Origin: an uncultured archaeon
GTDB lineage: Archaea > Iainarchaeota > Iainarchaeia > Iainarchaeales > Iainarchaeaceae
DNA length: 32,000 nt
Direction of reading: 5' to 3'
Assembly: GCA_964577555.1 (NCBI GenBank)
Contig: CAZNZM010000007.1
Location: 25,586 to 57,585, forward strand
The notes beneath the pieces were generated by a model that saw nothing but the letters and a program-made list of their open reading frames with translations, did no database searches and had not been told where the DNA came from. Position 1 is the stretch's first letter; each line of letters begins with the position of its first letter. The translations under genes and the position numbers were made by a program. Positions 4,119 through 23,619 of this stretch are shown here, in pieces.

Positions 4119-4161
4119 TAAAAGATATTAAATATTTATAAACCAACTATAAATTATTTTC

Positions 4162-8720: not shown

Positions 8721-8845
8721 AATTTTTATAAAGATTTTCCTGAACTAGCTAAAATGAAAAAGAATCGGGAAAAAAGAAAGGAATTGATTTGGTAGAATAA
8801 CAAAAGTGCTTGCAGCAAAAGCCTGAACCAATAGGCGTTAAAGCA

Positions 8846-9355
8846 TCAGAAGTCTTCCAAGTCAAACACCAGATAACCTGTGCTTCTGATTTTTTGCTTG
8901 CCATCAATTTTCTTGGCAATAACTCCAAGTTTCAGGTTTTTTGGAGTTTTTTTCAAATGTTTGGTTTTTCCCAGATCATTTATAAGATACTCAATCCTGA
9001 CTGGCTTGTAGTCAAGCAGCTCGCAACTCACATTAATAGTCTTATTCGGGCTGTTTACCAGAGGATAGTTTTCAAGGTTCTTATTGTGAACATGGCTGTG
9101 AATGAGCCAGCCGTTCCAATCATCAGGCCGATTGGCCTGTATGGGTCGCAAAAAAGGTTTTTATTCCGTGCTTTATTAACAGTTCTTTCGGGGCGGTGAA
9201 GTTTTTTGATAATCCATTTTTTTCTTGTGACCAAACACAAGGTCTCCAACAAACAAAACAGTGCTTTCTCCCTACTCTGGTTCGGATTGAACGCATCCGG
9301 ATAAAAGCAATGCTGAAATGGCAAAAATGAAAATTGTTGCAAAAGCCTGGTTCAT
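8846..9355 (-). pseudogene. Decayed small lipoprotein gene (in-frame stops, fragments in three frames)
   Basis: The frame starting at ATG 9355 reads MNQAFATIFIFAISALLLSGC VQSEPE-TAG-GESTVLFVGDLVFGHKKK..., a signal peptide with a lipobox-like LSGC. The same frame resumes as the track ORF 8846..9151 after three TAA stops. Two other track ORFs (9055..9342, 9123..9380) cover the middle in other frames. Frame changes sit at A7 and A5C2T6 homopolymer runs. Confidence 0.5.
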
Positions 9356-9409
9356 GGAACAAAATAAATCCGAAAAACATTTAAATATTGATGCATATCA
9401 ATATGTTTT

Positions 9410-9724
9410 ATGAGTGAAAAAAATCCTATTGCAATACTTAAAGCTCTTTCTGACGAAACAAGGCTGAAAATACTTGAACTGCTTTTAGACGGGGAAAGAT
9501 GCGTCTGCGAGATTTTCCCAAAAGTAAAGAGAACGCAGTCAACTGTTTCAACCCAGTTAGGCACGCTTGAAAAAGCAGGCTTAATTGAATCACGAAGGCA
9601 GGGCAAAAAGGTTTTTTATAAAATCAAGAACCTGGTTGTTTACGATGTTTTCAAGGCTTTGGGTTATTCAAAAGGGATTTTGCTGAAAGAAACCCGTTGC
9701 ATGCAAGAGATGCATAAAAAATGA
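9410..9724 (+). CDS. ArsR/SmtB family transcriptional regulator
   Basis: LKALSDETRLKILELLLDGERCVCEI... followed by TVSTQLGTLEKAGLIESRRQGKKVFY, a classic ArsR winged helix with a CVC metal/metalloid site. Confidence 0.85.
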   Translation: MSEKNPIAILKALSDETRLKILELLLDGERCVCEIFPKVKRTQSTVSTQLGTLEKAGLIESRRQGKKVFYKIKNLVVYDVFKALGYSKGILLKETRCMQEMHKK

Positions 9725-10035
9725 AAATCTTTGATTTGAAAGAAAAAATTGTTTTTTTTCCGGAAAAGCCGATAAAAAGGCATTTTTTGAATGCCAAAGG
9801 CTTTCACGCGGCGATAATCTGCCTCAAAAAATGCATTGAACTAAAGCCACATCAAGAAGACTACGGAGTGATCTTAACATTCCTTGAAGGCAAAGGCACT
9901 TTCACAGACAGCAACTGCTCACCCCCCTTGACAAAAAACCAGGGCATTTACATAAAAAAAGATGAAATAAGAGGCATAAAACCAGAAAAAGACTTAGTAG
10001 TGCTTGGAATCCAAGACATGAGAAAGGTGTTGTAA
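9721..10035 (+). CDS. Hypothetical protein (possibly cupin-like)
   Basis: ATGA overlap with arsR. The beta-rich pattern ...LKPHQEDYGVILTFLEGKGTF...GIYIKKDEIRGI... is loosely cupin-like. The function call is weak. Confidence 0.4.
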   Translation: MKIFDLKEKIVFFPEKPIKRHFLNAKGFHAAIICLKKCIELKPHQEDYGVILTFLEGKGTFTDSNCSPPLTKNQGIYIKKDEIRGIKPEKDLVVLGIQDMRKVL

Positions 10036-10248
10036 TTGAAAGTCGTTGTCTACACTTATCCAACATGCACTTATTACCATATAGTGGAAACAAAAAACAT
10101 GAAAGCCAAAGAAGAAGTCTTCAAAAAAACAGGCTACCCCACAGTTCCGATAACTCTTGTCGACAAAGAATACGTTTTTAGGCTGGGACAAGGAAAAAAT
10201 GAAAAAACTCTTATGGTTGTGAAAAAATGGAAATACTTTCAACAATAA
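10036..10248 (+). CDS. Glutaredoxin-like small protein with degenerate CxxY site
   Basis: TTG start directly after the upstream stop. VVVYTYPTCTYYH occupies the CPYC position of glutaredoxin/NrdH, and GYPTVPITLVD matches the cis-Pro region. The second Cys is replaced by Tyr. Confidence 0.5.
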   Translation: MKVVVYTYPTCTYYHIVETKNMKAKEEVFKKTGYPTVPITLVDKEYVFRLGQGKNEKTLMVVKKWKYFQQ

Positions 10249-11426
10249 AAGAGTTCACAAAATCAAAATTCAATTTAGGCCTATTAATACTCCTGTTTTT
10301 GATTGGAATAATACTTCTTACACAGCCAGAAACGCAAGCACAGGACACCCAAGGAATGACAGTAAACTACTTTTACCTGACAACCTGCCCGCACTGCGCA
10401 GAACAAAAACCAATTATCTTGGAACTACAACAAGAAATGCCTGAAATCAACTTTGTTTTCCAAGATGCTTCTTCAACAAAAGGCTCTACATTGTTTTACC
10501 GAATGGCTTCAGAAGCAGGCATGGACACTTCAAGGCTTAGAACGCCAACAACCTTTGTGGGAAAAAAGCCGCTGGTTGGAGTGCACAGCAAACAGGAAAT
10601 ACTAAATGCAATCAATGAGTGCATTGAACAATGCCAAAAAGGTGGACAACAACCTCATGAAACACAGGAAATCAGTTCAAGCTTCACAGCCTTTGAGTTG
10701 CCTTTCTTGGGAAGAACTGACCTCACAACATTCTCAATTCCAACACTCGCAATAGTGCTTGGCTTAATCGACGGCTTTAATCCCTGCGCAATGTGGGTAC
10801 TCGTTTATCTGATAGCCTTGCTCATAAATATTGGCAATAAGAAAAAAATCTGGGCAATAGTAGGAAGCTTTGTGTTGGCATCAGGCATACTATACTTTTT
10901 GTTCATGACAGCCTGGCTGAATGTTTTCCTCTTGCTTGGCTATCTGAAGCCAATAACAATTCTGATTGGCCTGGTTGCTTTAGGAGAGGGAATCCTAAGC
11001 TTAAAAGAATACCTTACAACAAAAGGCGCGCTAACCTGCAAAGTTGGAGACGAAAGCTCCCACAAAAAAACAATGAACAAAGTCCAGGAACTAATCTCAA
11101 AGCCATTGTCAATCACTGTTTTGTTTGGAATATTTGCACTGGCTTTTGTAGTGAACTCAGTAGAATTCGTTTGCTCTGCGGCAATTCCCGCGGTTTTCAC
11201 ACAAATTCTTGCATTAAGCGGCCTCTCAACAATAGAACACTATTGGTATATCCTGCTCTACGTTTTGTTCTTCATGCTTGACGACCTAATAATATTCGGG
11301 TTGGCTGCATTTGCAGTGAACAGCAACTTTGGAGAAAAATACGCAAAATACTGCAAAGCAATAGGAGGAATAATCCTCGTAATTTTAGGATTAGTACTGT
11401 TGTTTGCACCACATTTACTGAGATGA
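10227..11426 (+). CDS. Thioredoxin-fold (CPHC) domain fused to a polytopic membrane domain (DsbD/CcdA-like thiol-disulfide transfer protein)
   Basis: Signal/anchor helix, then YLTTCPHCAEQKP (CxxC). A membrane domain of about 6 helices follows, with LIDGFNPCAMWVL and FVCSAAIP cysteines. Confidence 0.6.
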   Translation: MEILSTIKEFTKSKFNLGLLILLFLIGIILLTQPETQAQDTQGMTVNYFYLTTCPHCAEQKPIILELQQEMPEINFVFQDASSTKGSTLFYRMASEAGMDTSRLRTPTTFVGKKPLVGVHSKQEILNAINECIEQCQKGGQQPHETQEISSSFTAFELPFLGRTDLTTFSIPTLAIVLGLIDGFNPCAMWVLVYLIALLINIGNKKKIWAIVGSFVLASGILYFLFMTAWLNVFLLLGYLKPITILIGLVALGEGILSLKEYLTTKGALTCKVGDESSHKKTMNKVQELISKPLSITVLFGIFALAFVVNSVEFVCSAAIPAVFTQILALSGLSTIEHYWYILLYVLFFMLDDLIIFGLAAFAVNSNFGEKYAKYCKAIGGIILVILGLVLLFAPHLLR

Positions 11427-11436
11427 AAGTGAAAAT

Positions 11437-12543
11437 ATGAAAGAAAAAAATACATTTATAATAATTACCGCCCTGTTCCTGGCATTTTATTTTATGCCTG
11501 TTGGAAGCCAATGGCTGGACAATGCACTGTTAAGCGGTTTTGCATTGCTGCATGAATATGCCATACAGCATGTCCTAACCTGCCTTGTTCCGGCATTCTT
11601 TATTGCAGGAGCAATTGCTGTTTTTGTGAAGAAACAGGCAGTGCTGAAATACTTAGGCGGAAAAGCAAAGCCCTACCTTTCCTATCCAATTGCTTCTGTT
11701 TCTGGAACAATTCTTGCAGTCTGCAGTTGCACAATTCTCCCTTTATTTGCAGGAATATACAAGCGAGGTGCCGGGCTTGGACCAGCAATTGCGTTCCTTT
11801 ACTCTGGACCTGCAATTAATGTCGCCGCAATCTTTCTTACTGCAAACGTTTTGGGCTTTAAAATTGGATTAGCCAGAGCTGTTGCAGCAATTTCTTTAGC
11901 AGTGCTTGTTGGCCTGACAATGGCATTCCTTTTCAGGGAAAAAAGCACAAAACAAGAAATTGCAATAGAAGAAGAAACCAAACAAAAAACTTCAAAAACC
12001 GCAATCGGATTATTTTTTGCCTCAATGGTTGGAATTCTAGTTGTGAATGGCCTGCAAATAGACGCAGTAATAAAATGGGTTGTAATGATTGCGCTTACAA
12101 TTGCAACAGCAGCAATAGCTTTCCTAAAATTCAAAACCGAAACAAGAAATGCTTGGTTATCGGAAACCTGGAGCATAAGCAAACTGCTTACCCCATACTT
12201 GTTCATTGGTGTATTCATAGTGGGATTCATTCAACCACTAATACCAGAACGACTTATAGTACAATGGGTTGGCTCAAACACAATACAAGCAAACCTCTTG
12301 GCAGCAGTGTTTGGCGCATTCATGTATTTTTCAACACTAACAGAAGTGCCAATAATGCAAGCACTAATAGCAAAAGGAATGAATCAAGGTCCAGCCCTAG
12401 CTTTGTTGCTTTCAGGCCCGTCATTAAGCCTGCCCGCAATGTTGGTTATAAGAAAAGTTTTGGGAAACAAAAAAACAATTGCTTACGTTGCAATAGTAAT
12501 AATTTATTCAGCCTTGGCAGGGCTAATATTTGGCATGATTTAA
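11437..12543 (+). CDS. Predicted permease (ArsP_1 / YraQ-like family)
   Basis: Polytopic membrane protein with the characteristic AVCSCTILPLFAG motif and a two-halves architecture split by a charged loop. Confidence 0.75.
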   Translation: MKEKNTFIIITALFLAFYFMPVGSQWLDNALLSGFALLHEYAIQHVLTCLVPAFFIAGAIAVFVKKQAVLKYLGGKAKPYLSYPIASVSGTILAVCSCTILPLFAGIYKRGAGLGPAIAFLYSGPAINVAAIFLTANVLGFKIGLARAVAAISLAVLVGLTMAFLFREKSTKQEIAIEEETKQKTSKTAIGLFFASMVGILVVNGLQIDAVIKWVVMIALTIATAAIAFLKFKTETRNAWLSETWSISKLLTPYLFIGVFIVGFIQPLIPERLIVQWVGSNTIQANLLAAVFGAFMYFSTLTEVPIMQALIAKGMNQGPALALLLSGPSLSLPAMLVIRKVLGNKKTIAYVAIVIIYSALAGLIFGMI

Positions 12544-12553
12544 GGGGGAAAAA

Positions 12554-12784
12554 TTGATGAAAATACAAGTGTTAGGAACAGGCTGCCCAAAATGCAAACA
12601 ACTTGAAGCAAACGTAAAAAAAGCTTTGGAAGAAACTGGAAAAAAAGCAGAAATAGAAAAAGTGACAAACATAACCAAAATAATCGAGTTCGGGGCAATA
12701 GCAACTCCAACATTAGCCATTGATGGAAAAATCATTTGCAGCGGCTGCATTCCCACAACAGAAGAAATCAAGAAATGGCTATAA
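12554..12784 (+). CDS. Redox-active disulfide protein 2 (small thioredoxin-family protein)
   Basis: MKIQVLGTGCPKCKQLEANVKKAL... with a 76-aa length and ATPTLAIDGK motif. This type of gene usually follows the YraQ-like permease. Confidence 0.8.
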   Translation: MMKIQVLGTGCPKCKQLEANVKKALEETGKKAEIEKVTNITKIIEFGAIATPTLAIDGKIICSGCIPTTEEIKKWL

Positions 12785-12824
12785 AAACAATACTTTAAAG
12801 CAATAATCCCTACACATTACAATC

Positions 12825-12840
12825 GGCAATGATGAGGTGA
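12825..12840. repeat. Left copy of 16-bp direct repeat GGCAATGATGAGGTGA (candidate attL core)
   Basis: Exact match to 23313-23328. It lies 67 bp upstream of the integrase ATG. An inward subterminal site GGCAATCATAGTAA lies at 12859-12872. Confidence 0.55.
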
Positions 12841-12906
12841 GTTACTATAGTGTCGTATGGCAATCATAGTAAGGGTTTTTAAACACTGTGCAGCACTATA
12901 GTAGCT

Positions 12907-14199
12907 ATGGAATCAAAGGATGATTACAATCTGCGGTTTACCCTGCAAAAGCTTGGCAATTCGCCAATGCTTGCCTGCAACAAAGAGAAGCTTTTGGAAT
13001 ACTATAACGAAAAAGTCGCCAACGGCATCAAAAAAACAAGTTATGCTTTTGTCTTGCGAATTTTAATAAAGCTCGGAGAGCACTTTCCTGACAAAAAGTT
13101 TGAGGATGTTTCAAAACAGGAAATGGTTTCCTTCATTAACGGCTTGAAGCCTGAAAAACATGTTTTGCCCCAAAAGCACGGCGGAGTAGTTGTTTTTGAA
13201 AAAGCTGCTTTCAGCGATAACACATTATGGCAACTCAAAGCAGCGATTAAAACATTTTACCGTTGGCTTTTTGGCGTTGGCTCTACAGACACTCCGCCGG
13301 AAGCAGTGAAATGGATTAGGAAGGAAGGCCATTCCAATGGAAAGCTTGAGGACAATTTCAAGAAAGAAATTTTGTCTATTAAAGAAGTTACTGAACTGAT
13401 TAACTGCGCCCACAATCCTCGGGATAAGGCAGTAATTGCGATTTTGTGGGAATCCGGCTTGAGGGCTTCTGAATTTTTGGGAATGAAAAAGAGCTGTTTG
13501 CAATGGCACAACCAGTATGTTGAATTTGAAGCATCCGGAAAGACTGGAAAACGGAATGTTATCCTCGTTCAATCAAAGCCTCATTTGGAAATTTGGCTTA
13601 ACGAGTTGGAGCGCAGGAAAAGCCAGTTAGCGCCTGGCCTGCAGGATTGCATTTGGATTGCTTTTAACAAGAAGGGCCTGAGAAACAACACGCTTGGCAA
13701 CAAGCTGCTTACAAGAGACAATTTGAACAACATGCTCAAAATCAATGCCAAAAGAGCAGGCATTCAAAAAAGAGTTTGGACTCATGGTTTGAGGCATTCT
13801 GCAGCTACTCGCGATGCTGCTAATGGCTGGAATGAAGCAAAGCTCCGCATCAAATACGGTTGGAGCAAAAAAAGCAATATGCCAAGCACTTATACTCACC
13901 TTGCAAACAGCGATTTGAAGGATACTATTTTGGAAGAGAATGGGATTATTGAGCACAAGCAAAACCAACAAAAATCCCTATTGGAAAATACTGTAAAGTG
14001 CTTGTTTTGCTTCACAGCCAACTTGCAGGAAAACGATTACTGCACCAAATGCGGCAGGCCATTAAAAGAAGAACAATTCAAGGCATTAGAGAAAAAAGCC
14101 GAAACAACAGAAGTACTGCAAAAAATGATACAACAAGAACTAGAAAGCAAGGGCATTGACATTGCACAAATAGCAAAAATTTTGACAATAAATGGCTGA
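12907..14199 (+). CDS. Tyrosine recombinase / phage-type integrase with C-terminal zinc ribbon
   Basis: Catalytic residues are in order: ESGLRASEF (Arg), HGLRHSAATRDA (HxxR) and PSTYTHL (Tyr). A C-terminal CLFC...CTKCG zinc ribbon is present. Confidence 0.85.
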   Translation: MESKDDYNLRFTLQKLGNSPMLACNKEKLLEYYNEKVANGIKKTSYAFVLRILIKLGEHFPDKKFEDVSKQEMVSFINGLKPEKHVLPQKHGGVVVFEKAAFSDNTLWQLKAAIKTFYRWLFGVGSTDTPPEAVKWIRKEGHSNGKLEDNFKKEILSIKEVTELINCAHNPRDKAVIAILWESGLRASEFLGMKKSCLQWHNQYVEFEASGKTGKRNVILVQSKPHLEIWLNELERRKSQLAPGLQDCIWIAFNKKGLRNNTLGNKLLTRDNLNNMLKINAKRAGIQKRVWTHGLRHSAATRDAANGWNEAKLRIKYGWSKKSNMPSTYTHLANSDLKDTILEENGIIEHKQNQQKSLLENTVKCLFCFTANLQENDYCTKCGRPLKEEQFKALEKKAETTEVLQKMIQQELESKGIDIAQIAKILTING

Positions 14200-14208
14200 C
14201 TATCCAGG

Positions 14209-14249
14209 TTAGGCAACAAGAATTCTGCTCGTTGTTTGCCTAAATTTTT
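14209..14249 (+). terminator. Hairpin plus T5 downstream of the integrase gene
   Basis: TTAGGCAACAA (14209-14219) pairs with TTGTTTGCCTAA (14232-14243) with one bulge, followed by ATTTTT. Confidence 0.4.
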
Positions 14250-14392
14250 GTATTACAATTATATTGTTACAATAGAATTGTGATATAAAATACGGTCCTG
14301 CGTTTGTATTACAGTTTAACACTTTTTGTTAAATTATGATATAAATCACAATTCTCCTGTTTTGGGCGAATTATAATACAAATTGAATTATG

Positions 14393-14731
14393 TTATTTTT
14401 GCTGCGGATTGATTTTCAGCATTTCAAGAATCAGCTTGTCAATCGCATCTTGTTGCTCTTTTGTAATCGTCCCAATTTTGCTTTTGAATCTGCTGTCATC
14501 CATTGCAGTTATTTGGAAAACGAGTGCAATACTGTCTTTGCTCAAGCCGTTTTCCGGCCTTGGCTCAATGTGCAAGGTAAAAGAAAAAGTTGCTTTGTCT
14601 GTGCTGCCGGTAAGTGGGATAATTGTGGTTAAACCGTTAGCTCTGCAAAGAACAACTGCTGGTCTTTCTCCTTTTTGTTCATGACCTTTGCCCTCTGGCA
14701 AGTCCACAAACCAGACTTCGCCTTTCCTCAT
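14393..14731 (-). CDS. mazF: MazF/PemK family endoribonuclease toxin
   Basis: MRKGEVWFVDLPEGKGHEQKGERPAVVL... and IIPLTGS... are the canonical PemK/MazF N-terminal and core motifs. Length is 112 aa. Confidence 0.85.
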   Translation of the reverse strand: MRKGEVWFVDLPEGKGHEQKGERPAVVLCRANGLTTIIPLTGSTDKATFSFTLHIEPRPENGLSKDSIALVFQITAMDDSRFKSKIGTITKEQQDAIDKLILEMLKINPQQK

Positions 14732-14737
14732 TCAAAA

Positions 14738-15268
14738 CTAGCTCCGTATTGATTTTGCTGATGCTTCCTGCCAAGGCTTCAACTCTGCTTTCAAATCTGC
14801 CAGTTCTTTTTCGCTTGGCCTGAACAAAAACTCTTTTGCTTTTGAAACACCAACAGCGATTTGTGCTTCAGAATAAAACGATTTCATTCTCTTTACATTT
14901 TTCAAAGCAGTTATTGGGTCTTGTTTTTGGCCAAATGCAAAAAAGGAATATGTTGCAGCAACTTCCAAGGCGCTGGGCTTTAACTCGGAAAACAATTCCT
15001 TAAATTCTTGAATGTCTTTTGATTCTGTGCTTGAAAGGTGTGCGGAGCTATCCAAATGCTCAATCTTTTTTCTATTTTCATAAACTTGGTCAGTCAAGTC
15101 TTTGGAATACGGCCCGCGGACATACAAATGAAAATTAAAGCCAGATTTTATGCCCTTCAAGTCCAAAAGATAAACTGCTTTTTGAATAATCAAGCGATCC
15201 TCAAAATCGTCAATCTTCGGCTTGAAACCCAACTCTTTAAAGCACGCAATAACTTTATCCAAATTCAT
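14738..15268 (-). CDS. Hypothetical protein, DUF4065/Panacea-like (candidate antitoxin for MazF)
   Basis: Lies 6 nt upstream of mazF. The start is set at the ATG forming an ATGA overlap with the upstream wHTH stop. IIQKAVYLLDLKG...YVRGPYSKDLTDQVYE resembles the DUF4065 pattern (..QK..YL...GP...ly). By-eye only. Confidence 0.45.
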   Translation of the reverse strand: MNLDKVIACFKELGFKPKIDDFEDRLIIQKAVYLLDLKGIKSGFNFHLYVRGPYSKDLTDQVYENRKKIEHLDSSAHLSSTESKDIQEFKELFSELKPSALEVAATYSFFAFGQKQDPITALKNVKRMKSFYSEAQIAVGVSKAKEFLFRPSEKELADLKAELKPWQEASAKSIRS

Positions 15269-15597
15269 TTTTTCACCCCACATTCAACTAATTTCTTCAA
15301 CCAATCTTTTATGTGCTCCCATGCCTGTTGACCTTCCTGAGTTATTTGGTAGGTTTCCAATTCTTTACCTTCCAAAGTAATCTTTTTTGAAGTAATATAA
15401 CTCATTTCTTTCAAGGCATTAAGATTTGTGTAAAGCGCCCCGTCACTAACTTGCAGAACCGCTTTCAATTCTCTGTAGGACACTCCATCTTGCCCAACGC
15501 TGGCGATGCTTGAAAGCAGTTGCAGCCGGATCAATGAAAAAACGCTTGAATTCAAAGCTTTTGACTCTTCAATCAAGGATAAAAAATCGCTATTCAT
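15265..15597 (-). CDS. Winged-helix transcriptional regulator (ArsR/PadR-like)
   Basis: LIRLQLLSSIASVGQDGVSYRELKAVLQVSDGALYTNLNALKEMSYITSKK...ETYQITQEGQ is a typical wHTH with a beta-hairpin wing. It is the first gene of the three-gene minus-strand unit. Confidence 0.7.
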   Translation of the reverse strand: MNSDFLSLIEESKALNSSVFSLIRLQLLSSIASVGQDGVSYRELKAVLQVSDGALYTNLNALKEMSYITSKKITLEGKELETYQITQEGQQAWEHIKDWLKKLVECGVKK

Positions 15598-15701
15598 AAC
15601 TATGCCAACTATGGTGCATTTCTATAAGAATTGAACAACCAATAAGTATAAAAGCTTTTAGTATTACTTTAATTTTAAAAGCATTTATAAAAGTTGATTT
15701 T

Positions 15702-15995
15702 ATGGTCAATCTCTACAGAAGAGGCAGGATTGCTGAAGGAAAGGTTGCAAGCGACCTTCGCTCCAAAGGCTTCAGAAACATTCGTCAAAGCGCTGGAAGC
15801 CGCGGGCCTGCTGACATTTACGCTTACAAGGGCGGTCAAAAATACTATGTTCAAGTAAAAAGCGGAACCGCAAGAATAAATTCCCAAGGCATAAACCGGC
15901 TGCGCAGACTGGCCAGAGACAGAGGCGGCACAGCAGTAGTCATTAACCGCCAAAACGCAAAAAATAAATGGCGCTTCTTTGGAAACTGGGGGTGA
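15702..15995 (+). CDS. Hjc-like PD-(D/E)xK nuclease (Holliday junction resolvase-like)
   Basis: RRGRIAEGKVASDLRSKGFRNIRQSAGSRGPADIYAYKGGQKYYVQVKSG is collinear with the archaeal Hjc core (..ER.l...L...Gf.v.R...S....D..A......iEvK). The E-x-K position reads Q-V-K. Confidence 0.6.
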   Translation: MVNLYRRGRIAEGKVASDLRSKGFRNIRQSAGSRGPADIYAYKGGQKYYVQVKSGTARINSQGINRLRRLARDRGGTAVVINRQNAKNKWRFFGNWG

Positions 15996-16000
15996 AATAA

Positions 16001-16195
16001 ATGGTTCAGAAACTGTTTGGATTGGGCCTTGGAGCAACAGGAATAGTTGGAGTTTTAATTGTAGCTGGAATACTCCTTAAAGGAGCAAATATTGCACCAA
16101 GCCAAGGCGACCTTGCAATTTCAGCAGGAATCGGTATAGGAGTAATCTTAGGCCTGCTCGGAATCTTCAGCGTGGTAAAAAGGTTGGCCTATTAG
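16001..16195 (+). CDS. Small two-helix glycine-zipper membrane peptide
   Basis: 64 aa with two hydrophobic helices rich in GxxxG (GLGLGATGIVGVLIVAG; GIGIGVILGLLGIF). ATG lies 5 nt after the nuclease stop, with GGGGTGA just upstream. Confidence 0.5.
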   Translation: MVQKLFGLGLGATGIVGVLIVAGILLKGANIAPSQGDLAISAGIGIGVILGLLGIFSVVKRLAY

Positions 16196-17220
16196 ATTCT
16201 TTGTTCAAAATAAGCTTTCCAGAATTTGGCGTTTTCTATTATTCTTTTTGCTATTTTGTCTGGTTCTGAAATATGTTCTGACAAAATCCCCGTCAATTCT
16301 TTTTCTCCTATTGCAGCCAAATCAGTGGTCTTTATGCTTTGGCACGAGACCTTTTTCATAATCCCTTCAAATATCGCATCATTGTTCTTTCGCAATTTTT
16401 CCAAATCAGACTTTTTAATTAAGTAATCCTCTACCAAGAATAACAAATTTGGCAATTCTATAATGTCTTTTGTTGAGATATTCTTCTTAAGTTTTATGTA
16501 TTCTACTACCTCTTGCGGTTTCATTATATCTTCTGCTTTTAAAATATCAAGAAATGTTCTAGCCTTTGTAACTATTTTCTTATCGCAAACCATTTTTCTT
16601 AAATCCACAACTATCGCAAAATTGATAATGTATTTGTAGTCCTTTGGCAACCCCTTGAGAACATTTCTTTTGATCCAACTTTTCAAATCAAATCCGACCT
16701 GTATAAAATCAGCTTTAACAGGGGGTAGAACGTAAATTCCATAACCAAATGTTTTGAAACCTAGCGATAGCAATTTTTTCTGAATTCGTTTTTTTGGTTC
16801 ATTATATTTTTGGATTATGATTGTTGGCAAAGGCGCATCTAATTTTGCAATTAGCTCTTCTTTGGTTATATTTTCTCTTTGTAGCATTTCATTTATTTTG
16901 TCCAGAAATTTTCTCAATTCACTTTTCTCAAATGTTGCTTCAGATTTTTCTTTTTCAAGCTTTTCAGATTTTTGCAATTCTGACTCATACTTTTGTTTAT
17001 ATTCTGTGACGGCTTTCTCGTAATCAGTTTTTGCTTTGTTCCCTTGGTAGTATTGATAAACTGAAAATAGTAGGCCAGCAAATCCAACTATAAAAGTAAT
17101 AAAACTAATCGCGCCCTGATCCACGTAAAAATAAAGCACACTACCCGCAGCAAGAATTAAGAGACTTACAACAGCAAACCATCGCTTTTTAAGTTCTTGA
17201 AAAATATTCTCTAATGGCAT
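16192..17220 (-). CDS. Membrane-anchored coiled-coil protein of unknown function (fourth gene of the R-M operon)
   Basis: The track start at 17256 is TTG inside res. The first ATG is at 17220 (MPLENIF...), 14 nt after the res stop. The protein has two TM helices, a charged heptad-like stretch KQKYESELQKSEKLEKEKSEATFEKSELRKFLDKINEM and a C-terminal domain of about 230 aa with no motif I recognise. Confidence 0.7.
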   Translation of the reverse strand: MPLENIFQELKKRWFAVVSLLILAAGSVLYFYVDQGAISFITFIVGFAGLLFSVYQYYQGNKAKTDYEKAVTEYKQKYESELQKSEKLEKEKSEATFEKSELRKFLDKINEMLQRENITKEELIAKLDAPLPTIIIQKYNEPKKRIQKKLLSLGFKTFGYGIYVLPPVKADFIQVGFDLKSWIKRNVLKGLPKDYKYIINFAIVVDLRKMVCDKKIVTKARTFLDILKAEDIMKPQEVVEYIKLKKNISTKDIIELPNLLFLVEDYLIKKSDLEKLRKNNDAIFEGIMKKVSCQSIKTTDLAAIGEKELTGILSEHISEPDKIAKRIIENAKFWKAYFEQRI

Positions 17221-17234
17221 AAATATGACAATTA

Positions 17235-19433
17235 TCAAATTTCCAAAATTTTCCAATTTGATAAATCAGTTAGGTTGTATTCATATTTTTCTTGATCATT
17301 GTAACGCCAAGTACCATTAATGCATATTGCTATTCCGCCCCAGAGTTTTCTGCCTTTTTTGTTTTGGTTTTTAATATATTTTTGCAACCCCTCTGCTCTA
17401 GGGCCAGCGTCGGATGTTTCTGCAGTTCTTCCCGATTTTGTATCAAGCAGACCAATTGTCCCGTCTTTTAATTGTATTATAAAATCAACATAAAAAGCTC
17501 TCTCATATTCATTCTCATCTTTGTATGGGACAGCAAAGTATTTGATTTCCGTTTCCCCATTTTTGAACCACCAGGCTACTTTAGCAGAGCCGTCTAATTT
17601 ATCAATGAATTGTCGTTCTGGCTCGCTTGGCTTTTTTGTGTAAAACGGCTTCATTATTGATTTTACATGCTCTTCCTTTTTGTAGTGGCTGTTATAACTT
17701 ATTATTACAGGCACTTCCCAATCCGGCACTGTTTTCTTTTCTCTTATTCCGTTTAGCCTTTCTGTAATGTGTTTTTGGTATTTTTCTTTTGCCAAGTTAA
17801 TTACATCAACAAAGGCCTGCACATTTTCTTTTCCCAGCACAAGTTTTTGAGCTCGAGGATGGTAACGGTCCAGTTTGAATTTTTGGCTTAAAAATTGATA
17901 AAGCGCTGTTTTCATTCTATCGCTTGAATCAGCAGGCGCATAGGGAATACAATTTTGTGAGATAAACTTATCCCAGACCTGCCTTAGTTCTGCTTCATTT
18001 AGCTGAATATCGATTTGGCCCTTGCGTTCTATTTCCCCCAATTTATCAACATCAACGATTTTGCCATCGGCAATAATTGGGCTAACTATTTTTGAAGGAT
18101 TATACGTTATCTTTTTTTCGAGTTTTGTTTCTTCTGCGACTTTCATAAAGATTTTTACAAAATCTCCAGAAAGTCTCGTTCTTTCCCTCTGCCTTTTTAA
18201 ATAAACAGATTCCAAACTAATGTTTTTGTATAGTTTGTTATCCCTTTTTGCTTCATAAACAGTAACATAATCCTTGGCGTAATCTTCAGTAATTTCTATA
18301 TTTGGCAGGTTTGTGAAAACAAAGCCCTTATTTAGCTCTGGCTCATTATAATATTTCAATTCTGGCATTCTCATTATTCTACCAATTGTCTGGATTGTAA
18401 AAGTAAAACTTTTTGATTCTCTAAAAATAAGCAGTATTTGTGCTCTTGGACAATCCCAACCTAATGCAGGGGCTTGTTTGAAAACAAGCACTTCAACTTC
18501 ATTTTCTGGCTTATCAATGTTTATTAAATTGTCAGATTTTTCTTCTGATAACCAAACAGCAAGTTTCCCGTTTCCCTCTACAATCTTGAATTTGTCTTTT
18601 AGTATCTTTAAGACCTCATCTTTTTTATTGATTAAACTGCTTTTTTGATCCGGCAATTGAATCAGAATTAATGGGTTAATGTTCGCTCCTTCCTTTTTAT
18701 AAAGTTTTAACAATTCTTCCCTTTTTTTTAAGGACTGTTCAATTACCAATTCATCAGAACTCTTTGTGCCAACTTTTATATCCAAAAATTCAGGGTTAAC
18801 GGCTATTTCCGATTTTATCATTTCCTCTGCTTTTACGTCACTTAAGTGCACTTTTTCTATTTCTGAAACATTTTCTTTCAAGTGTGGAGTTGCAGAGACT
18901 TCCAAAGTCACTTTTGGACCTATGACTTCAATTAACTCTCTTGATTTTTCAGAGCTTGCAGTATGGTGGCTCTCATCAATGACCAAGACTATTTCTCTTC
19001 CTTCTTCTTTCGTGTTTTGAATGATGCTGTTCAAATTGTTGTCCTGCTCGTTTTCTCGAACATAAATATTTATCTCTTTTTTGTTTATGCTGTGCCAATT
19101 AATGAACAGTATCTCATTTTCTCCAATCATTCGGTCTTCCAGGTCTTCAAAATACGAACATTGAAGCAAGCAGTCATCTTCATAGTATTTTTCCAGTTTT
19201 TCCTTACTTTGTTCGTGCAGCATCCTAACAGAAACCCATACAAAAGAAAATTTTTTGTCATCCTTTCTATTCTTCACTAATTGCTTTAATACCTCTGAAA
19301 CCATTACTGTTTTTCCTGAACCTGTTGGACTTTGAAAAATAACCACTTCGTGCTCTGCTGACCTTAAAGCATTCTCTATTTTTCTATGCAGGTTTTCAAC
19401 AGCTCTTCTCTGGTAGTCCCTTAAGTCTATCAT
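17235..19433 (-). CDS. res: Type III restriction enzyme Res subunit (SF2 helicase plus C-terminal PD-(D/E)xK nuclease)
   Basis: Helicase motifs in order: FQSPTGSGKT (I), VIDESHH (II, DExH), EVSATPH (III) and QTIGRIMRMP (VI). C-terminal YVDFIIQLKDGTIGLLDTKSG is nuclease-like. ATGA overlap with mod. Confidence 0.85.
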   Translation of the reverse strand: MIDLRDYQRRAVENLHRKIENALRSAEHEVVIFQSPTGSGKTVMVSEVLKQLVKNRKDDKKFSFVWVSVRMLHEQSKEKLEKYYEDDCLLQCSYFEDLEDRMIGENEILFINWHSINKKEINIYVRENEQDNNLNSIIQNTKEEGREIVLVIDESHHTASSEKSRELIEVIGPKVTLEVSATPHLKENVSEIEKVHLSDVKAEEMIKSEIAVNPEFLDIKVGTKSSDELVIEQSLKKREELLKLYKKEGANINPLILIQLPDQKSSLINKKDEVLKILKDKFKIVEGNGKLAVWLSEEKSDNLINIDKPENEVEVLVFKQAPALGWDCPRAQILLIFRESKSFTFTIQTIGRIMRMPELKYYNEPELNKGFVFTNLPNIEITEDYAKDYVTVYEAKRDNKLYKNISLESVYLKRQRERTRLSGDFVKIFMKVAEETKLEKKITYNPSKIVSPIIADGKIVDVDKLGEIERKGQIDIQLNEAELRQVWDKFISQNCIPYAPADSSDRMKTALYQFLSQKFKLDRYHPRAQKLVLGKENVQAFVDVINLAKEKYQKHITERLNGIREKKTVPDWEVPVIISYNSHYKKEEHVKSIMKPFYTKKPSEPERQFIDKLDGSAKVAWWFKNGETEIKYFAVPYKDENEYERAFYVDFIIQLKDGTIGLLDTKSGRTAETSDAGPRAEGLQKYIKNQNKKGRKLWGGIAICINGTWRYNDQEKYEYNLTDLSNWKILEI

Positions 19434-21100
19434 TTGAAAATCCTCTTGTAAACATTCAGAATAACTGCCGGAATTGGTCTTAATTCAACTAACTCGGTCA
19501 AATCTTCGAATTCTTCTTCTCTTGCACTTTCATCTAGAGAGAAGACATACACTACAAACTTTTTTTTCATTTTCTTGGCTTCTTTCTTAAAGGGTTCAAT
19601 CCCGTCATCGGAATAAATTATCCCCAAAAATTTCCCTTTAGAATTATTGTAAATTCGGAAATGCTTACCTTTCATTACCTCATCAAAACAATCCTCTTTC
19701 AAACACAACATTTCAGTTGATTTAGCCACGAGTTCTCTCTTGTTCTTATCAGTTGGTTCAGCGTCAACAAAACCAGTCGTAAAATATTTAAGGTTGACCT
19801 TAATTTTAGTTATTTCTGGATAGTCTTTATGCCCTTCAATAACTTTCTTTATTCTTGGATAACACACTTCTTCAGCTATTTTATTTTCATTATTCGTGCA
19901 CAAAATAAATTTTCTATCCGCGCCATCTTCTTTGTTCAAAATCATTACCGCATGGCCTGTTGTTCCTGATCCTGCAAAATAGTCTAAGATAATGGCATTT
20001 TTTCGTTCTGAAACTATTGGAGCCAAACAATCGTACGTGTTATAAACAGACTTTGGAAAATCAAACGATGAATTGGGAACAAGTGCGTGTACCAATTTTG
20101 TACCGTACTCCGCAGCATCATATTTGGGATTTTGCCAGACAGTTCTAACAGAGCCGTATGGCTTACCAATTTCGATTTCAATTCTATCATCAGATTTCTT
20201 AATTCTGAGCAAATCCTTTACAGATTCTACACTTTGTCTAGCATATCTCCATTTTCTTTCGACGCCAGTTATGTCAATGGGCCATACATAATATTTCCCG
20301 CCCCTCTCTTCAGTCTGTTTTCTTGGATGGAGATTATCTAGCGGCACTTCCCCAAAGCCCAAAATTTTATTGCCTTTAATTATTATTGGATAAAAACAAT
20401 TACGCGCATCTGTTCTTAGTGATTCTCCACCCCAGTTTCTCAGATTACTCCAGTATATTTCCTCTTCTCTCAATTTTCGAGTACCAATAACTTTCAATCC
20501 TTTTCTGAAAACAAAATAAGCATATTCATGCGTATAAGAAAAATTACTTCCTTGGATTCCTCTTGGGTTGTGCACAATTGTTATGCAATGTATTTCCCAA
20601 CCAGGAAATATTTCTTCTAGGAGACAGCCCAAATGGTGGAATTCATTGTCGTCAATTGCACAAATGAGCACGCCGTTTTGTTTCAATAAATTTCTTGCAA
20701 GTTTTAAGCGCTTTTCCATCATACTTAGCCATTTGCTGTGTCTCCAATGATCGTTAATGTCAACAAAGTCGTTATTGTATTTCCAGTCTTTTGCACCAGT
20801 GTTAAATGGCGGATCAATGTAAATTACATCAATCATTCCCTTGTGTGTGTAATTTAAAACAGAAAGTGCATGATAATTGTCGCCCTCAATTAGAATATTC
20901 GCTGATTTTGTTTTATCGGTTGCTATTTCCCTTTTTTTGACTTCTTCCAAAACAGGGAGTTTTTCTTTGCATAACTCTGCTACTTCTTCAGGCTTGTCTT
21001 CCCAAACTATTCCATACTTTCTCCTTAGGAGTTTATCTTTTTTTTCAAGTTCTTTAACCAAATCTGGCTTTGCCCAATTGGAATAATCTTTTTTAGCCAT
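19430..21100 (-). CDS. mod: Type III R-M Mod subunit (beta-class N6-adenine/N4-cytosine DNA methyltransferase)
   Basis: Motif IV DVIYIDPPFNTG precedes motif I ILDYFAGSGTTGHA. This is the beta permutation typical of Mod, with a variable region between them. Confidence 0.85.
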   Translation of the reverse strand: MAKKDYSNWAKPDLVKELEKKDKLLRRKYGIVWEDKPEEVAELCKEKLPVLEEVKKREIATDKTKSANILIEGDNYHALSVLNYTHKGMIDVIYIDPPFNTGAKDWKYNNDFVDINDHWRHSKWLSMMEKRLKLARNLLKQNGVLICAIDDNEFHHLGCLLEEIFPGWEIHCITIVHNPRGIQGSNFSYTHEYAYFVFRKGLKVIGTRKLREEEIYWSNLRNWGGESLRTDARNCFYPIIIKGNKILGFGEVPLDNLHPRKQTEERGGKYYVWPIDITGVERKWRYARQSVESVKDLLRIKKSDDRIEIEIGKPYGSVRTVWQNPKYDAAEYGTKLVHALVPNSSFDFPKSVYNTYDCLAPIVSERKNAIILDYFAGSGTTGHAVMILNKEDGADRKFILCTNNENKIAEEVCYPRIKKVIEGHKDYPEITKIKVNLKYFTTGFVDAEPTDKNKRELVAKSTEMLCLKEDCFDEVMKGKHFRIYNNSKGKFLGIIYSDDGIEPFKKEAKKMKKKFVVYVFSLDESAREEEFEDLTELVELRPIPAVILNVYKRIFK

Positions 21101-21103
21101 TGT

Positions 21104-21250
21104 TCAAACCTTCACATCGTTCTTCTTCAGTTCTTGTTCTACAAACAATTCAAACTGGCGAGAAATAATTAGGCCCTTCTTTTTGCAGTGTTCTTTATAT
21201 GCATTATACAGTCTCTCATCAACTTTCAAAGTAATGTTTTTACTGGCCAT
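21104..21250 (-). CDS. Ribbon-helix-helix (CopG/Arc-like) small DNA-binding protein, candidate controller of the R-M operon
   Basis: Own translation (not in track, 48 aa): MASKNITLKVDERLYNAYKEHCKKKGLIISRQFELFVEQELKKNDVKV. It shows a beta-strand then two helices, the RHH pattern. Its stop lies 3 nt before the mod ATG. Confidence 0.6.
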   Translation of the reverse strand: MASKNITLKVDERLYNAYKEHCKKKGLIISRQFELFVEQELKKNDVKV

Positions 21251-21276
21251 GTTACAATAGTAAATATTTGCACAAC

Positions 21277-21284
21277 TTTATAAA
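21277..21284 (-). promoter_or_regulatory. TATA-like box upstream of the RHH-mod-res operon
   Basis: The minus strand reads ATATTTATAAAG, about 27-34 nt upstream of ATG 21250, consistent with a leaderless or short-leader archaeal promoter. Confidence 0.35.
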
Positions 21285-21310
21285 TATGTTTTGACTCTGT
21301 CCAAGGCCTG

Positions 21311-21330
21311 TTTTTCAACCATTTTCAACC
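21311..21330. repeat. Tandem TTCAACCAT-type iteron pair, copy 1 (TTTTTCAACCATTTTCAACC)
   Basis: It recurs as TTTCTCAACCATTCTCAACCGTT at 21468-21490. Confidence 0.6.
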
Positions 21331-21467
21331 TTGCCAAAAAAGCGAGTTTTGGGTTTATTGGCTGTTTTGAATCATTTAATGCACATTTTGGCCGTATGTT
21401 GTAATGGTTGCAGTTTCTGGCTTTTTTTGAGAGTTTACGAGGTAAATTGCACTTTTAGAATCCAGAA

Positions 21468-21490
21468 TTTCTCAACCATTCTCAACCGTT
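21468..21490. repeat. Tandem TCAACC iteron pair, copy 2
   Basis: TTTCTCAACCATTCTCAACCGTT lies 157 bp from copy 1. Confidence 0.6.
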
Positions 21491-21527
21491 TAGACATAAC
21501 TGCCTTTTTGTTGCTTTTTTGCTCAAA

Positions 21528-21557
21528 TTGACAAACTGGCAGGGGGTGTTTGTCAAG
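21528..21557. repeat. Palindromic element 1: TTGACAAAC-N11-GTTTGTCAA with G-string spacer
   Basis: Reads TTGACAAACTGGCAGGGGGTGTTTGTCAAG, with 9-bp perfect inverted arms. A near-identical copy lies at 21659-21687. Confidence 0.7.
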
Positions 21558-21658
21558 TCAGGTAGTAGTACAGTAGGGTTTTGAAAGTATGTGTGTAACT
21601 GGGTAGGGTAGTTAGTCCTTCATATTTTGTTTAAGTAGCAATGGTTGGGTGGGGCATC

Positions 21659-21687
21659 TTGACAAACAGGGCAGGGGTGTTTGTCAG
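21659..21687. repeat. Palindromic element 2: TTGACAAAC-N11-GTTTGTCAG
   Basis: Reads TTGACAAACAGGGCAGGGGTGTTTGTCAG. It lies 10 nt beyond the stop of the minus-strand ORF 21698..22228. Confidence 0.7.
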
Positions 21688-21697
21688 TTTTTGAGAA

Positions 21698-22228
21698 TCA
21701 GTCTTTGCCAATCCAGGCAAAGCTTTTGTCATTCAAGATTATCTTCTTGCTGGCTACGAGCTCGCCGATTTTCTTGCTTGCAATGTCAGCAGGGCCAATG
21801 AAGCGGACTATTTGCTCCCTTGTTGGATTCCGGTTTTTAATGAACTGCTTTAATTCCTCATCAGGGTCTTTTTCTGTTTCCGCAAGCTTTTGGTCGTCAG
21901 CCCAGGCAACATAAATCTTTTTCCTGTCACCGTATTGTGCAGGCCGCTTGTCAACATGAACATTTGGATATCCTGCAAGAATACTGAATAAGCGTTTTTT
22001 CTGGTTGGTGTCAAGCACGCCCAATTTGACAGCATCATATGAGGTGAATTTTCCTTTTTCAAGAAGTATTTGAAAAGCTTTTTCAGCCAATCGTTCAACT
22101 CTGCCCAAAGGAGTTTGCATCGCAATTATTCGGGTTGCTTCAAAAAAGCGGTTAAATTCGGCCTGCAACGATTGACTCCAATCGCAATAGCCTTTCAAAG
22201 TCAAATGCTTCCAGTTTTCTTCACTCAT
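21698..22228 (-). CDS. Hypothetical protein (island cargo; possible DNA-binding/replication-related)
   Basis: 176-aa ORF with an ATG start and no motif I recognise. It is adjacent to the iteron/palindrome region. Confidence 0.5.
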   Translation of the reverse strand: MSEENWKHLTLKGYCDWSQSLQAEFNRFFEATRIIAMQTPLGRVERLAEKAFQILLEKGKFTSYDAVKLGVLDTNQKKRLFSILAGYPNVHVDKRPAQYGDRKKIYVAWADDQKLAETEKDPDEELKQFIKNRNPTREQIVRFIGPADIASKKIGELVASKKIILNDKSFAWIGKD

Positions 22229-22263
22229 TCAAACCACGCCTTGCCATACCAAACCACTTGCCT

Positions 22264-22563
22264 TTATTCGCTTGGTTCTGCTTCACTTTCAGTATTGCCA
22301 ACAACCAGGTAAATTGTCCTGTTGGTTTCCATTGCTGGCCCGCCGAGCTCAAGCAAGTTTTCGCCTTGAAAATAACTGCATTCAATGCCATTGCTTGGCT
22401 CCTCATGAAAGAACAACAGCTTGCTGTTGAAGCCCTGTTTTTTAAGGTCCAGCTTGTCACCCCTCTTTCCAGAAACATTGATTACGGCGAACAAGTTTCC
22501 TTTCTTGAGCGCATGAATGGACTTTTCAATTACCTGCACAAACCTCGCCTCTTTGGCATTCAA
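22264..22563 (-). CDS. Hypothetical protein
   Basis: 99-aa ORF whose only available start is TTG. It overlaps the upstream ORF by 38 nt and has an acidic tail (ESEAEPSE). Confidence 0.35.
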   Translation of the reverse strand: MNAKEARFVQVIEKSIHALKKGNLFAVINVSGKRGDKLDLKKQGFNSKLLFFHEEPSNGIECSYFQGENLLELGGPAMETNRTIYLVVGNTESEAEPSE

Positions 22564-22747
22564 TCCCGTCGCTGCGGAGTTTTACTTTCTGGATGCACTG
22601 ATTAGGAATATAGAGAATGTTGTCCTCTGTCTTGATTTTCAAAAAATGAGCATCAATGTTCAAAACCAAGCCAAAGCACTGCATCTGCTTTTGTCCTTCG
22701 CTGTAAATCAGCAAAGCCCTTTTCCCAACCAAATCGTGCCTTTCCAT
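22526..22747 (-). CDS. Hypothetical small protein, loosely Sm/SH3-like
   Basis: GKRALLIYSEGQKQMQCFGLVLNIDAHFLKIKTEDNILYIPNQCIQKVKL has the alternating beta pattern of Sm-like barrels. By-eye only. Confidence 0.4.
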   Translation of the reverse strand: MERHDLVGKRALLIYSEGQKQMQCFGLVLNIDAHFLKIKTEDNILYIPNQCIQKVKLRSDGIECQRGEVCAGN

Positions 22748-22794
22748 GCAAAAAACCTTACAAAAACCTCAATCGAGGTAGTATTTATTTGTAT

Positions 22795-22813
22795 TAGCGC
22801 AATTTTTGCGCTA
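22795..22813. promoter_or_regulatory. Operator-like palindrome TAGCGCAA-TTT-TTGCGCTA in a divergent promoter region
   Basis: 8-bp perfect inverted arms, GC-rich against an AT-rich background. It lies between the minus-strand operon start (22747) and the plus-strand RHH gene (22972). Confidence 0.45.
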
Positions 22814-22971
22814 GCGCAGGAAAAACGCACAAGAGTTTATATTTGAGATGGCTGGCAAGCATAAAATATAAACTATTTGAAACAATGGCAAATAGTTTGT
22901 ACCATTAGCACCATGCTTTTAAATAGTTCCTATAGTAATAATTCTTTACAATGTAAAGAGGTGCAAAAAAA

Positions 22972-23112
22972 ATGCCCAGCAGAAGCGGAATAACCACAAT
23001 CCAATTGGAAACAAAAACCCGGGACAGGCTAATGGAAATAGGCAAAAAAGGCGAAACATACGACCAAATCATCAACAAACTCATAGACCAAAGCCAAAAA
23101 CGCAAAAAATAA
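22972..23112 (+). CDS. Small ribbon-helix-helix-like DNA-binding protein
   Basis: Own translation (46 aa, not in track): MPSRSGITTIQLETKTRDRLMEIGKKGETYDQIINKLIDQSQKRKK. GAGGTG lies 8 nt upstream of the ATG. The pattern is a beta-strand (TTIQLE) plus two helices. Confidence 0.6.
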   Translation: MPSRSGITTIQLETKTRDRLMEIGKKGETYDQIINKLIDQSQKRKK

Positions 23113-23312
23113 TTATCACCGGCACAAAAAAGCCACAGCAGGCCAGTTATAACTGCTTTGAAAGCTAGGCAGTTAGGCTGAGAATTTGCCAATCTTTTTA
23201 TCAGCCTAACCCGCCAAAATGCCATGAAAGGCAAGGCAACTGCAATTAACGCCTTGTAGCAAGTCAGGCTGGAACGTTAAGGTTTTTACTATCATTGCCT
23301 GACGATAACATA

Positions 23313-23328
23313 GGCAATGATGAGGTGA
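23313..23328. repeat. Right copy of 16-bp direct repeat GGCAATGATGAGGTGA (candidate attR core)
   Basis: Exact match to 12825-12840. The inward site TTACTATCATTGCC (23286-23299) is the reverse complement of GGCAATGATAGTAA. Confidence 0.55.
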
Positions 23329-23403
23329 AAACCAACAATATATCCAAAATGGATTCTTGAATATTTTGGGAAGATGCGAAGACAATTTTTGGCGATTTTT
23401 TTT

Positions 23404-23619
23404 TCATTTTATTTGCTTAAGTGCAAGTCTTATGTCTGCTCCGACAACGGTTTTTCTATTCGCGTGCTTTGCAAATTCTGTTGCTTGCTGGCTTATTTTA
23501 ATTCCTTCTTCTTCAAGGATTTCGGCAAGAGCAACAACTGCATCTTCGCTTACCCTTCCAGCACCGGCTTTGCGAATAATTCTGTCAACTGCAGCCAAAG
23601 GCAAAATTTGATCCCCCAT
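23404..23619 (-). CDS. Archaeal histone (HMf/CBF-NFY fold)
   Basis: [71 protein letters not shown] is a classic 71-aa histone fold. The track start at 23628 is GTG. ATG 23619 is preceded by AGGTGG. Confidence 0.9.

Follow-up and report, generated by a model that had tools for sequence, protein, structure and literature searches.

Archaeal tyrosine recombinases target tRNA genes, intergenic sites and protein-coding genes according to a 2021 review, in which small RNAs (sRNAs) are absent as targets and which treats tandem integrations and the use of near-cognate sites by SSV1 as well (PMC8371274). Integration into the gene of a small stable RNA is known; C/D box sRNAs were not found described as a target class. 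A methylation-guide C/D sRNA as integrase target did not turn up in the literature searched, with most subscription journals outside its coverage, and integrases are not mentioned in two C/D sRNA surveys. Here, we analysed a 32,000-nucleotide window (positions 25,586 to 57,585 of contig CAZNZM010000007.1, assembly GCA_964577555.1) of an uncultured archaeon of the Iainarchaeaceae (order Iainarchaeales, DPANN). Its segment 12825-23328, termed element B, carries a gene for a tyrosine integrase and is best explained as an element integrated via a short core within an array of elements that target the 5' end of a C/D box sRNA gene, a reading to which we assign a probability of about 0.78.

The locus shares features with several described systems. 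As with the pTN3-like integrases of Thermococcales (PMC8371274), the chromosomal attachment site (attB) would be formed by the 5' portion of the gene for a small stable RNA, the rebuilt gene would stand under an element-supplied promoter and the integrase gene is not split; integrase-linked genome rearrangement is likewise discussed for that group. In contrast to the pTN3-like case, however, the target is a C/D box sRNA gene instead of the 5' half of a tRNA, the pTN3-like integrases have no detectable close sequence relationship to the present one, and the promoter lies at the end opposite the integrase, whereas the rebuilt tRNA of pTN3 is read from the integrase promoter. The classical, non-suicidal integrases of the pNOB8 type, which use tRNA 3' ends, resemble the present case in an intact integrase gene beside one attachment site, short direct repeats and tandem integrations. 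There, the intact target gene lies beside the integrase; in the present case that place is taken by the old promoter with the displaced 5' fragment, and the intact gene lies at the far end. SSV-type integrases are also archaeal tyrosine recombinases of integrative elements, but they carry the attachment site within the integrase gene, and this gene is split when the element integrates; we rejected an SSV-type suicidal integrase, as the core is located 67 nt upstream of an intact, uninterrupted 430-aa open reading frame (ORF). In the genomic islands in tRNA and tmRNA genes described under the Islander concept (PMC4383910), a conserved small RNA gene is similarly restored with a displaced fragment at the other end, although the targets in those bacteria and archaea are tRNA and tmRNA genes, not C/D sRNA genes. 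Finally, recombinase-less units accumulate head-to-tail at one site, as in integron arrays and cis-mobilizable elements, but unlike in integrons there is no IntI-type integrase, no attC hairpin and no common promoter Pc, and each unit ends in an sRNA-type promoter.

Core repeat, integrase and C/D box sRNA gene

The 16-mer GGCAATGATGAGGTGA is present exactly at 12825-12840 and 23313-23328, with the tyrosine integrase gene adjoining one of the two direct repeats, and no third copy with up to 2 mismatches exists in the window or in the whole 979-kb assembly (15 contigs). An initial annotation of the window had read the block between the repeats as an integrated element, the 16-mer as its attachment core and the target as something other than a tRNA, all of which our analysis bears out. 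ARAGORN finds no tRNA in the window, Rfam at the gathering threshold places no family over either end, and no tRNA was found at the ends of related elements. The only Rfam match in the window is a tRNA at 163-258 on the minus strand (96 nt, 53.7 bits), which was missed by ARAGORN and probably contains an intron. The chance of about 0.1 that had been given for a repeated 16-mer, in contrast, was too optimistic: in 200 first-order Markov simulations of the AT-rich window, 75% held at least one repeated 16-mer (mean 1.9 per window), and the window contains other exact 16-mer repeats, e.g. AAAACGCAAAAAATAA at 15952 and 23097. Repeat length was therefore dropped as an argument, and significance rests on the strong conservation across genomes.

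The finer anatomy of the two ends was likewise confirmed. Just inside the left core, the word GGCAATCATAGTAA is found in forward orientation at 12859-12872, and a copy with one mismatch lies reverse-complemented at 23286-23299; there are no further copies with the leading GGCAAT in the genome. A 10-bp inverted repeat is formed by ATCATTGCCT (23291-23300) and AGGCAATGAT (23312-23321), and the palindrome ACTATAGT occurs twice at the left end. The symmetrical order core-arm and arm-core that had been deduced from these sites is peculiar to the present element: in relatives, the integrase-side arm alone is kept, and the side opposite the integrase is an sRNA promoter, not a matching arm. The inverted core-like copy in the right arm scores 12.3 bits with the sRNA covariance model described below.

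The integrase matches PF00589 with 68.1 bits (cut-off 27.1) over residues 157-334. R186, H293, R296, W319 and Y329 are invariant across six homologues, as are C365, C368, C379 and C382 in the same alignment; K212 and K215 are both invariant and either may be the catalytic lysine, the catalytic roles being putative assignments by family pattern. The best solved relatives are XerA and XerD (E ~1e-9), and the protein is a relative and not an orthologue of the XerA chromosome-dimer resolvase (NF040815), for which it scores 83 bits, below the cut-off of 220. Homologues with 56-73% identity are patchily distributed over seven Iainarchaeales genomes from five families and six metagenome contigs. All of them share the same upstream layout, i.e. 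a TATA-like box, ~25 nt, GGCRATGATGAGGT, five bases and ACTATAG, which continues in all close homologues with the core-like GGSRTTAYAGTAA, TTTAAA, ACTATAG and the start codon. In the window, the centre of the TATA-like box next to the gene is 27 nt before the integrase ATG, and this box may act as a leaderless integrase promoter. In a maximum likelihood tree, all 12 integrases with the core upstream fall into one clade (support 100/100), and those beside tRNA 3' ends form a separate clade (100/99), a split that suggests a change of target, from tRNA to sRNA, in a single family of integrases. The members of this tRNA-adjacent sister clade, from the same archaeal order, lie directly downstream of tRNA 3' ends and also have ACTATAG before the start codon. 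Only ~10 of the 196 genomes searched yielded an integrase of the sRNA-core clade. A viral contig collection yielded no integrase relative, no attL-type pattern and no attP-type contig. The closest genome-borne homologue (locus L100, JAFCCG010000037.1; 65% identity, same att arm) sits in a bin labelled Chloroflexi bacterium, probably by a binning or labelling error.

What the core is emerged from two related elements in other genomes of the order (G170 and G114; G-labels denote genomes of the order, G000 being that of the window and G001, G002 and G003 belonging to the same genus, g1). The second core of these elements, at a distance of 6,109 bp and 12,578 bp, respectively, is the start of an intact C/D sRNA with the layout GGC-RATGATGA-GGTTAACACCRT-CTGA-loop-TGATGA-NTTAACTCAACN-CTGA-GCC and a following T-run, in which both guides are 12 nt long. 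A strict pattern search recovered this sRNA in 21 genomes, and a covariance model built from 22 copies (R1), with which the G170 and G114 copies score 77-80 bits, detected it in 112 of 151 genomes of the order and in 48 of the 53 high-quality ones, in most cases with one copy per genome. In the alignment of the 22 sequences, boxes and guides do not vary, whereas loop length does, and the terminal stem GGC/GCC shows one compensatory change. The copies in relatives thus have the C, D and internal C'/D' boxes and the short terminal stem of a C/D box sRNA. Both guides match the 23S rRNA of the window genome at sites 29 nt apart, and the box-D+5 rule leads to U2598 and G2627, the equivalents of E. 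coli U2552 (in the A loop) and G2581. The family is hence a predicted C/D box methylation guide for these two positions; the window genome has genes for both fibrillarin and Nop5, and in all species examined the A loop is modified at the U2552/G2553 equivalents (PMC7994747). Judged by sequence, the 14-nt core GGCRATGATGAGGT comprises the predicted terminal stem and C box of the sRNA together with its three leading guide bases, and the window core represents the first 14-16 bases of the sRNA gene.

An uninterrupted counterpart of the left junction is found in the congener G002, where ArsR, ArsP, thioredoxin, promoter and intact sRNA follow one another. The thioredoxin-promoter-sRNA segment of G002 aligns with window positions 12557-12838 at 82-84%, and the alignment stops right after GGCAATGATGAGGT, from which G002 continues with TAACACC... 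and the window with GAGTTACTATAG. Such a break is exactly what is expected if an element inserted into the sRNA gene at its 5' end. The empty site expected by the initial annotation, CAATC-core-AAAACCAACAAT, was seen nowhere; the real site in G002 reads thioredoxin-promoter-GGCAATGATGAGGT-TAACACC... and continues into the sRNA. An uninterrupted site is hence known for the left junction; the right junction is without a matching empty site, and the right flank of G002 has no homologue in the window genome.

Host locus, arrays and competing readings

Comparison with ten relatives, including the congener G003, showed the gene order g7442, g8013, histone, Hef, with a segment of ~8776-23400 absent. 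The absent unit is larger than the 10.5 kb between the repeats. Contrary to what had been supposed, the 'redox operon' left of element B is not part of the core genome, since it is missing from the ten relatives, in which g8013, a KaiC/RecA-like gene, directly precedes histone and Hef. The array is located between g8013 and histone, away from the sRNA gene. The g8013-histone spacer itself is variable in several relatives (61-857 bp), and in G003 it holds an apparent small HicA/HicB-like pair on the minus strand, judged by eye (locus L107, G003:C119, 5510-6023). Window positions 8750-8775 and 23386-23411, 14.6 kb apart, are 77% complementary and may be the halves of a former g8013/histone hairpin terminator.

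The native sRNA gene of the window genome lies elsewhere (contig C2:146860-146928, plus strand; 53 bits) and has the same guides. Its stem and C box are changed (GGGCCGC-ATGAAGA), such that 8 of 14 core positions match; the stem has 7 bp (GCGGGCC/GGGTCCGC). One may speculate that this altered 5' end protects the gene from integrases. A partial sRNA paralogue with the AACTCAAC guide in first position is found 2 kb from the native copy (C2:148943-148965, minus strand).

The segment between g8013 and the left core, block A, looks like the remnant of an earlier element, to judge from its absence in relatives, its likeness to G002, its promoter and a cargo-like pseudogene. Its ArsR, ArsP and thioredoxin genes share 77-84% DNA identity with G002, which is closer than core genes, and it ends in an element-type promoter. 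The frameshifted pseudogene at its left (8846-9380; ...WLIHSHVHNK..., metallophosphoesterase-like) has a homologue among the cargo genes of the G170 element, a LigT-metallophosphoesterase gene.

To the right of element B, a diverged stub of ~75 nt follows the core, of which no more than the initial dozen bases are recognisable as a small type of cassette. We rejected an sRNA remainder at this position, given that the sequence right of 23328 scores 17 bits with model R1 and only the first 24 nt align, and the right flank (23313-23403) lacks D, C' and D' boxes and a second guide of a C/D sRNA. The word at this flank was also considered as a free host site and discarded, because the order-wide search showed that the core followed by GAAAACCAA(C/T) forms the left border of a family of integrase-less cassettes in at least 12 genomes. 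Such core-flanked cassettes of 2-2.4 kb are seen in G023 (locus L126, G023:C1:119000-128000, 3480-7880) as well as in loci L128, L118, L094 and L127. They start with ~85 conserved nt (GAAAACCAAT...TGATGACGACGCAA...ATTAAGACC...CTGA, then a T-run), end in the conserved promoter-like TCTTTACCGTATCATTTTTTGATGTCATTAACACCCACTCATAAC and have as cargo either a type II restriction-modification system or a toxin pair of the RelE type. The cassette end was examined as a second rRNA guide, and no complement with up to 2 mismatches was found in the rRNA operons of G023 and G056. The cassettes would be mobilised in trans.

Arrays at this core are common: G010 has three cores, G023 has three cores ~2.2 kb apart that enclose integrase-less cassettes, and in G170 the end of another element, with ribbon-helix-helix (RHH) and thioredoxin-like genes, lies directly left of attL. 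The promoter sequences upstream of the cores are of few types, each common to distant host families. The type at the window attL (TTTAAAG-CAATAATCCCTACACATTACAATC) is also found before the intact G002 sRNA and before the far-end sRNA in G170 and G114.

In the mechanism that we propose, the attachment core of this integrase clade would be the 5' end of the C/D sRNA gene. Integration would cut this gene after base 14, the probable position of strand exchange, and leave the old promoter plus 14 bases beside the integrase gene; the other element end would supply its own promoter and the same 14 bases, so that a complete sRNA gene is rebuilt and may be read from the new promoter. As the rebuilt gene would keep the core, further elements and integrase-less cassettes could insert serially and give rise to arrays. 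Element B would lie within such an array, with the older remnant, block A, on its left and the cassette stub on its right. Our best guess at the history is that an earlier element entered a resident core-bearing stub, the native site being unusable, that B then entered the regenerated core, and that A later lost its left part. Element B may be mobile at present, in which case the expected attP junction would read ...CGATAACATA-GGCAATGATGAGGTGA-GTTACTATAGTG... and the junction freed of B ...CATTACAATC-GGCAATGATGAGGTGA-AAACCAACAAT...

Several points weigh against this reading. The canonical attR product is not seen in the window, as the right flank is not an sRNA remainder. At the left outer boundary (8720-8830), a third core was sought and dropped, with matches of 7/16 and 12/19 (8779-8797) that are not significant, and the g8013-histone spacer of the ten relatives contains neither sRNA nor core. 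All genomes compared were binned from metagenomes, and some of their contigs end at the repeat. Recombination at the core is a predicted function of the integrase, and use of the displaced sRNA promoter by the integrase gene is conjecture, as this gene has its own TATA box.

The alternative that has to be weighed most seriously concerns the order of events only. Blocks A and B (~8.8-23.4 kb) might have moved in as one composite, with the inner 16-mer at 12825 as a relic, either by excision between outer cores of a donor array and insertion into a poor secondary site or by uptake of a DNA fragment. What the relatives lack is indeed the whole 14.6-kb unit, block A is closer to G002 (77-84% DNA identity) than core genes are (Hef 68% at the amino acid level), which suggests that A travels, and the native sRNA core with its 8/14 matches is unusable; moreover, archaea are known to carry tandem elements and to use near-cognate sites (PMC8371274). 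Since neither a core nor a target duplication is present at the outer left boundary, and since the perfect 16-mers and the intact integrase fit a recent single insertion of B equally, we regard a joint arrival as less likely, though it is our main alternative.

That the sRNA is instead cargo at the right end of the elements, with the integrase-side copy as a partial internal duplication and the true insertion sites elsewhere, appears improbable. The small number of promoter types shared by distant host families, the intact sRNA that is always at the far end of the element and the position of the window element apart from the host sRNA would all be explained. Against cargo, 112 of 151 genomes have the sRNA, in general as one copy, but only ~10 of the 196 genomes searched have an integrase of the clade. 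Its neighbours in genus g1 are the same in G000, G001, G002 and G003 with or without element DNA, in family f1 the genes next to it, of 346 aa or 413 aa, are likewise the same, the native promoters of G001 and G000 are orthologous, and the promoter left of the G114 attL resembles the native promoter of the congener G116. An origin of the repeat unrelated to recombination is very improbable indeed. In this case GGCAATGATGAGGT would be a conserved regulatory leader, e.g. a C-box or kink-turn (k-turn) half-site for L7Ae, and the copy at 23313 would be due to chance or unrelated. Repeated 16-mers are common by chance in such DNA, and the motif lies near a promoter; binding of L7Ae to k-turns in mRNAs has been reported (PMC5539422). 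A leader would nevertheless leave unexplained the second copy in the same orientation 6-12.6 kb downstream in G170, G114 and G010, the G002 similarity that breaks exactly after the motif, and the content between the copies, which is mobile across host families. In addition, a C box without a D box forms no k-turn. Integration of element B via the core within an array remains the reading that we prefer. Its wider form, in which the sRNA 5' end is a dedicated landing pad at which one integrase clade builds promoter-bearing, integron-like arrays with defence cassettes, is put forward as a tentative proposal that may well not hold.

Gene content and features of the window

The features of element B and its flanks are compiled in Table 1. 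Nine proteins are common to element B and the element of G114, whose host belongs to another family of the order, with identities of 56% for the integrase, 67% for MazF, 82% for the 181-aa protein, 91% for the winged-helix regulator, 99% for the Hjc-like protein, 59% for Mod, 51% for Res, 49% for the 176-aa protein and 78% for the RHH protein; for comparison, Hef is 65-68% identical even among congeners. The module of Hjc-like protein and winged-helix regulator appears to have been exchanged very recently relative to the rest of the element. The 176-aa and 46-aa RHH proteins recur near the sRNA-side end of the G170, G114 and G010 elements (tblastn), and in other elements of the family the cargo includes genes for a terminase, Shedu nuclease, transposase or AAA ATPase. 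In the ~450-bp non-coding stretch of element B, a palindromic word of 28-33 nt (TTGACAAAC.GGCAGGGG.TGTTTGTCA) occurs in two copies (21525-21557 and 21658-21690); that this region is a replication or regulatory site is a guess.

Table 1. Annotated features of element B and its flanks, in window coordinates.
Feature	Position	Strand	Content or basis
Block A, apparent older element or cassette remnant	8776-12793	+	Absent from ten relatives
Frameshifted phosphoesterase pseudogene	~8846-9380	-	
ArsR	9410-9724		Pfam results
104-aa ORF	9721-10035		
Glutaredoxin-like ORF	10036-10248		
Thiol-redox membrane protein, 399 aa	10227-11426		
ArsP-type permease	11437-12543		
Thioredoxin_3	12554-12784		
sRNA-type promoter 'type I'	12794-12824	+	TTTAAAG 12794-12800 and 24-nt spacer up to core; aligns with G002 sRNA promoter and with promoters at sRNA-side ends of G170 and G114 elements
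Core copy 1 (putative attL)	12825-12840	+	GGC terminal stem, AATGATGA C box, GGT first guide bases, GA
Integrase-side arm (P')	12841-12906	+	Motif order matches all close integrase homologues; ACTATAGT 12844-12851, core-like site GGCAATCATAGTAA 12859-12872, TATA-like TTTTTAAAC 12876-12884, ACTATAGT 12895-12902
Tyrosine integrase, 430 aa	12907-14199	+	Pfam PF00589; C-terminal CxxC...CxxC zinc-ribbon-like tail
Three-gene module	14393-15597	-	MazF/PemK, 181-aa protein, winged-helix regulator
MazF/PemK toxin	14393-14731	-	
181-aa protein	14738-15283	-	Weak DarG-type match
Winged-helix regulator	15265-15597	-	
Hjc-like nuclease-fold protein, 97 aa	15702-15995	+	Weak Hjc and PHROG matches
Membrane peptide, 64 aa	16001-16195	+	
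Membrane/coiled-coil protein, 354 aa	16192-17256	-	
Type III restriction subunit (Res)	17235-19433	-	Pfam, PADLOC
Type III methylase (Mod)	19430-21100	-	Pfam, PADLOC
Small RHH protein	21104-21250	-	
Repeat-dense non-coding region	21251-21697		
Backbone gene, 176 aa	21698-22228	-	Without family match
Backbone gene, 99 aa	22264-22563	-	Without family match
ORF, 73 aa	22526-22747	-	
RHH protein, 46 aa	22972-23112	+	
sRNA-side arm (P)	23113-23312	+	Hairpin-rich non-coding tail, read from sequence; TATA-like TTAAGG 23277-23282, TTTTTAC 23283-23289, inverted core-like site 23281-23299
Core copy 2 (putative attR)	23313-23328	+	
Stub of 'G-type' unit	23329-23403	+	GAAAACCAAC, diverged sequence, T-run at histone stop codon

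Meaning for the hosts and their mobilome

A methylation-guide C/D sRNA as target would widen the rule by which integrases target conserved genes of small, stable RNAs, and it would mean that a C box with a terminal stem can serve as a core site. If the 5' end of the sRNA gene is indeed a dedicated landing pad, each insertion would swap the promoter of the guide, whose expression would then depend on the last element inserted, and mutations of stem and C box could offer hosts an escape, of which the native copy of the window genome may be an example. The signature of GGCRATGATGAGGT followed by ACTATAG offers a handle for finding mobile elements in DPANN genomes, the mobilome of which is poorly known. 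The proposed promoter exchange at an rRNA-modification guide and the arrays of restriction-modification, toxin-antitoxin and Shedu cargo at one site, together with an apparent escape variant, bear on how ultra-small archaea gain defence genes.

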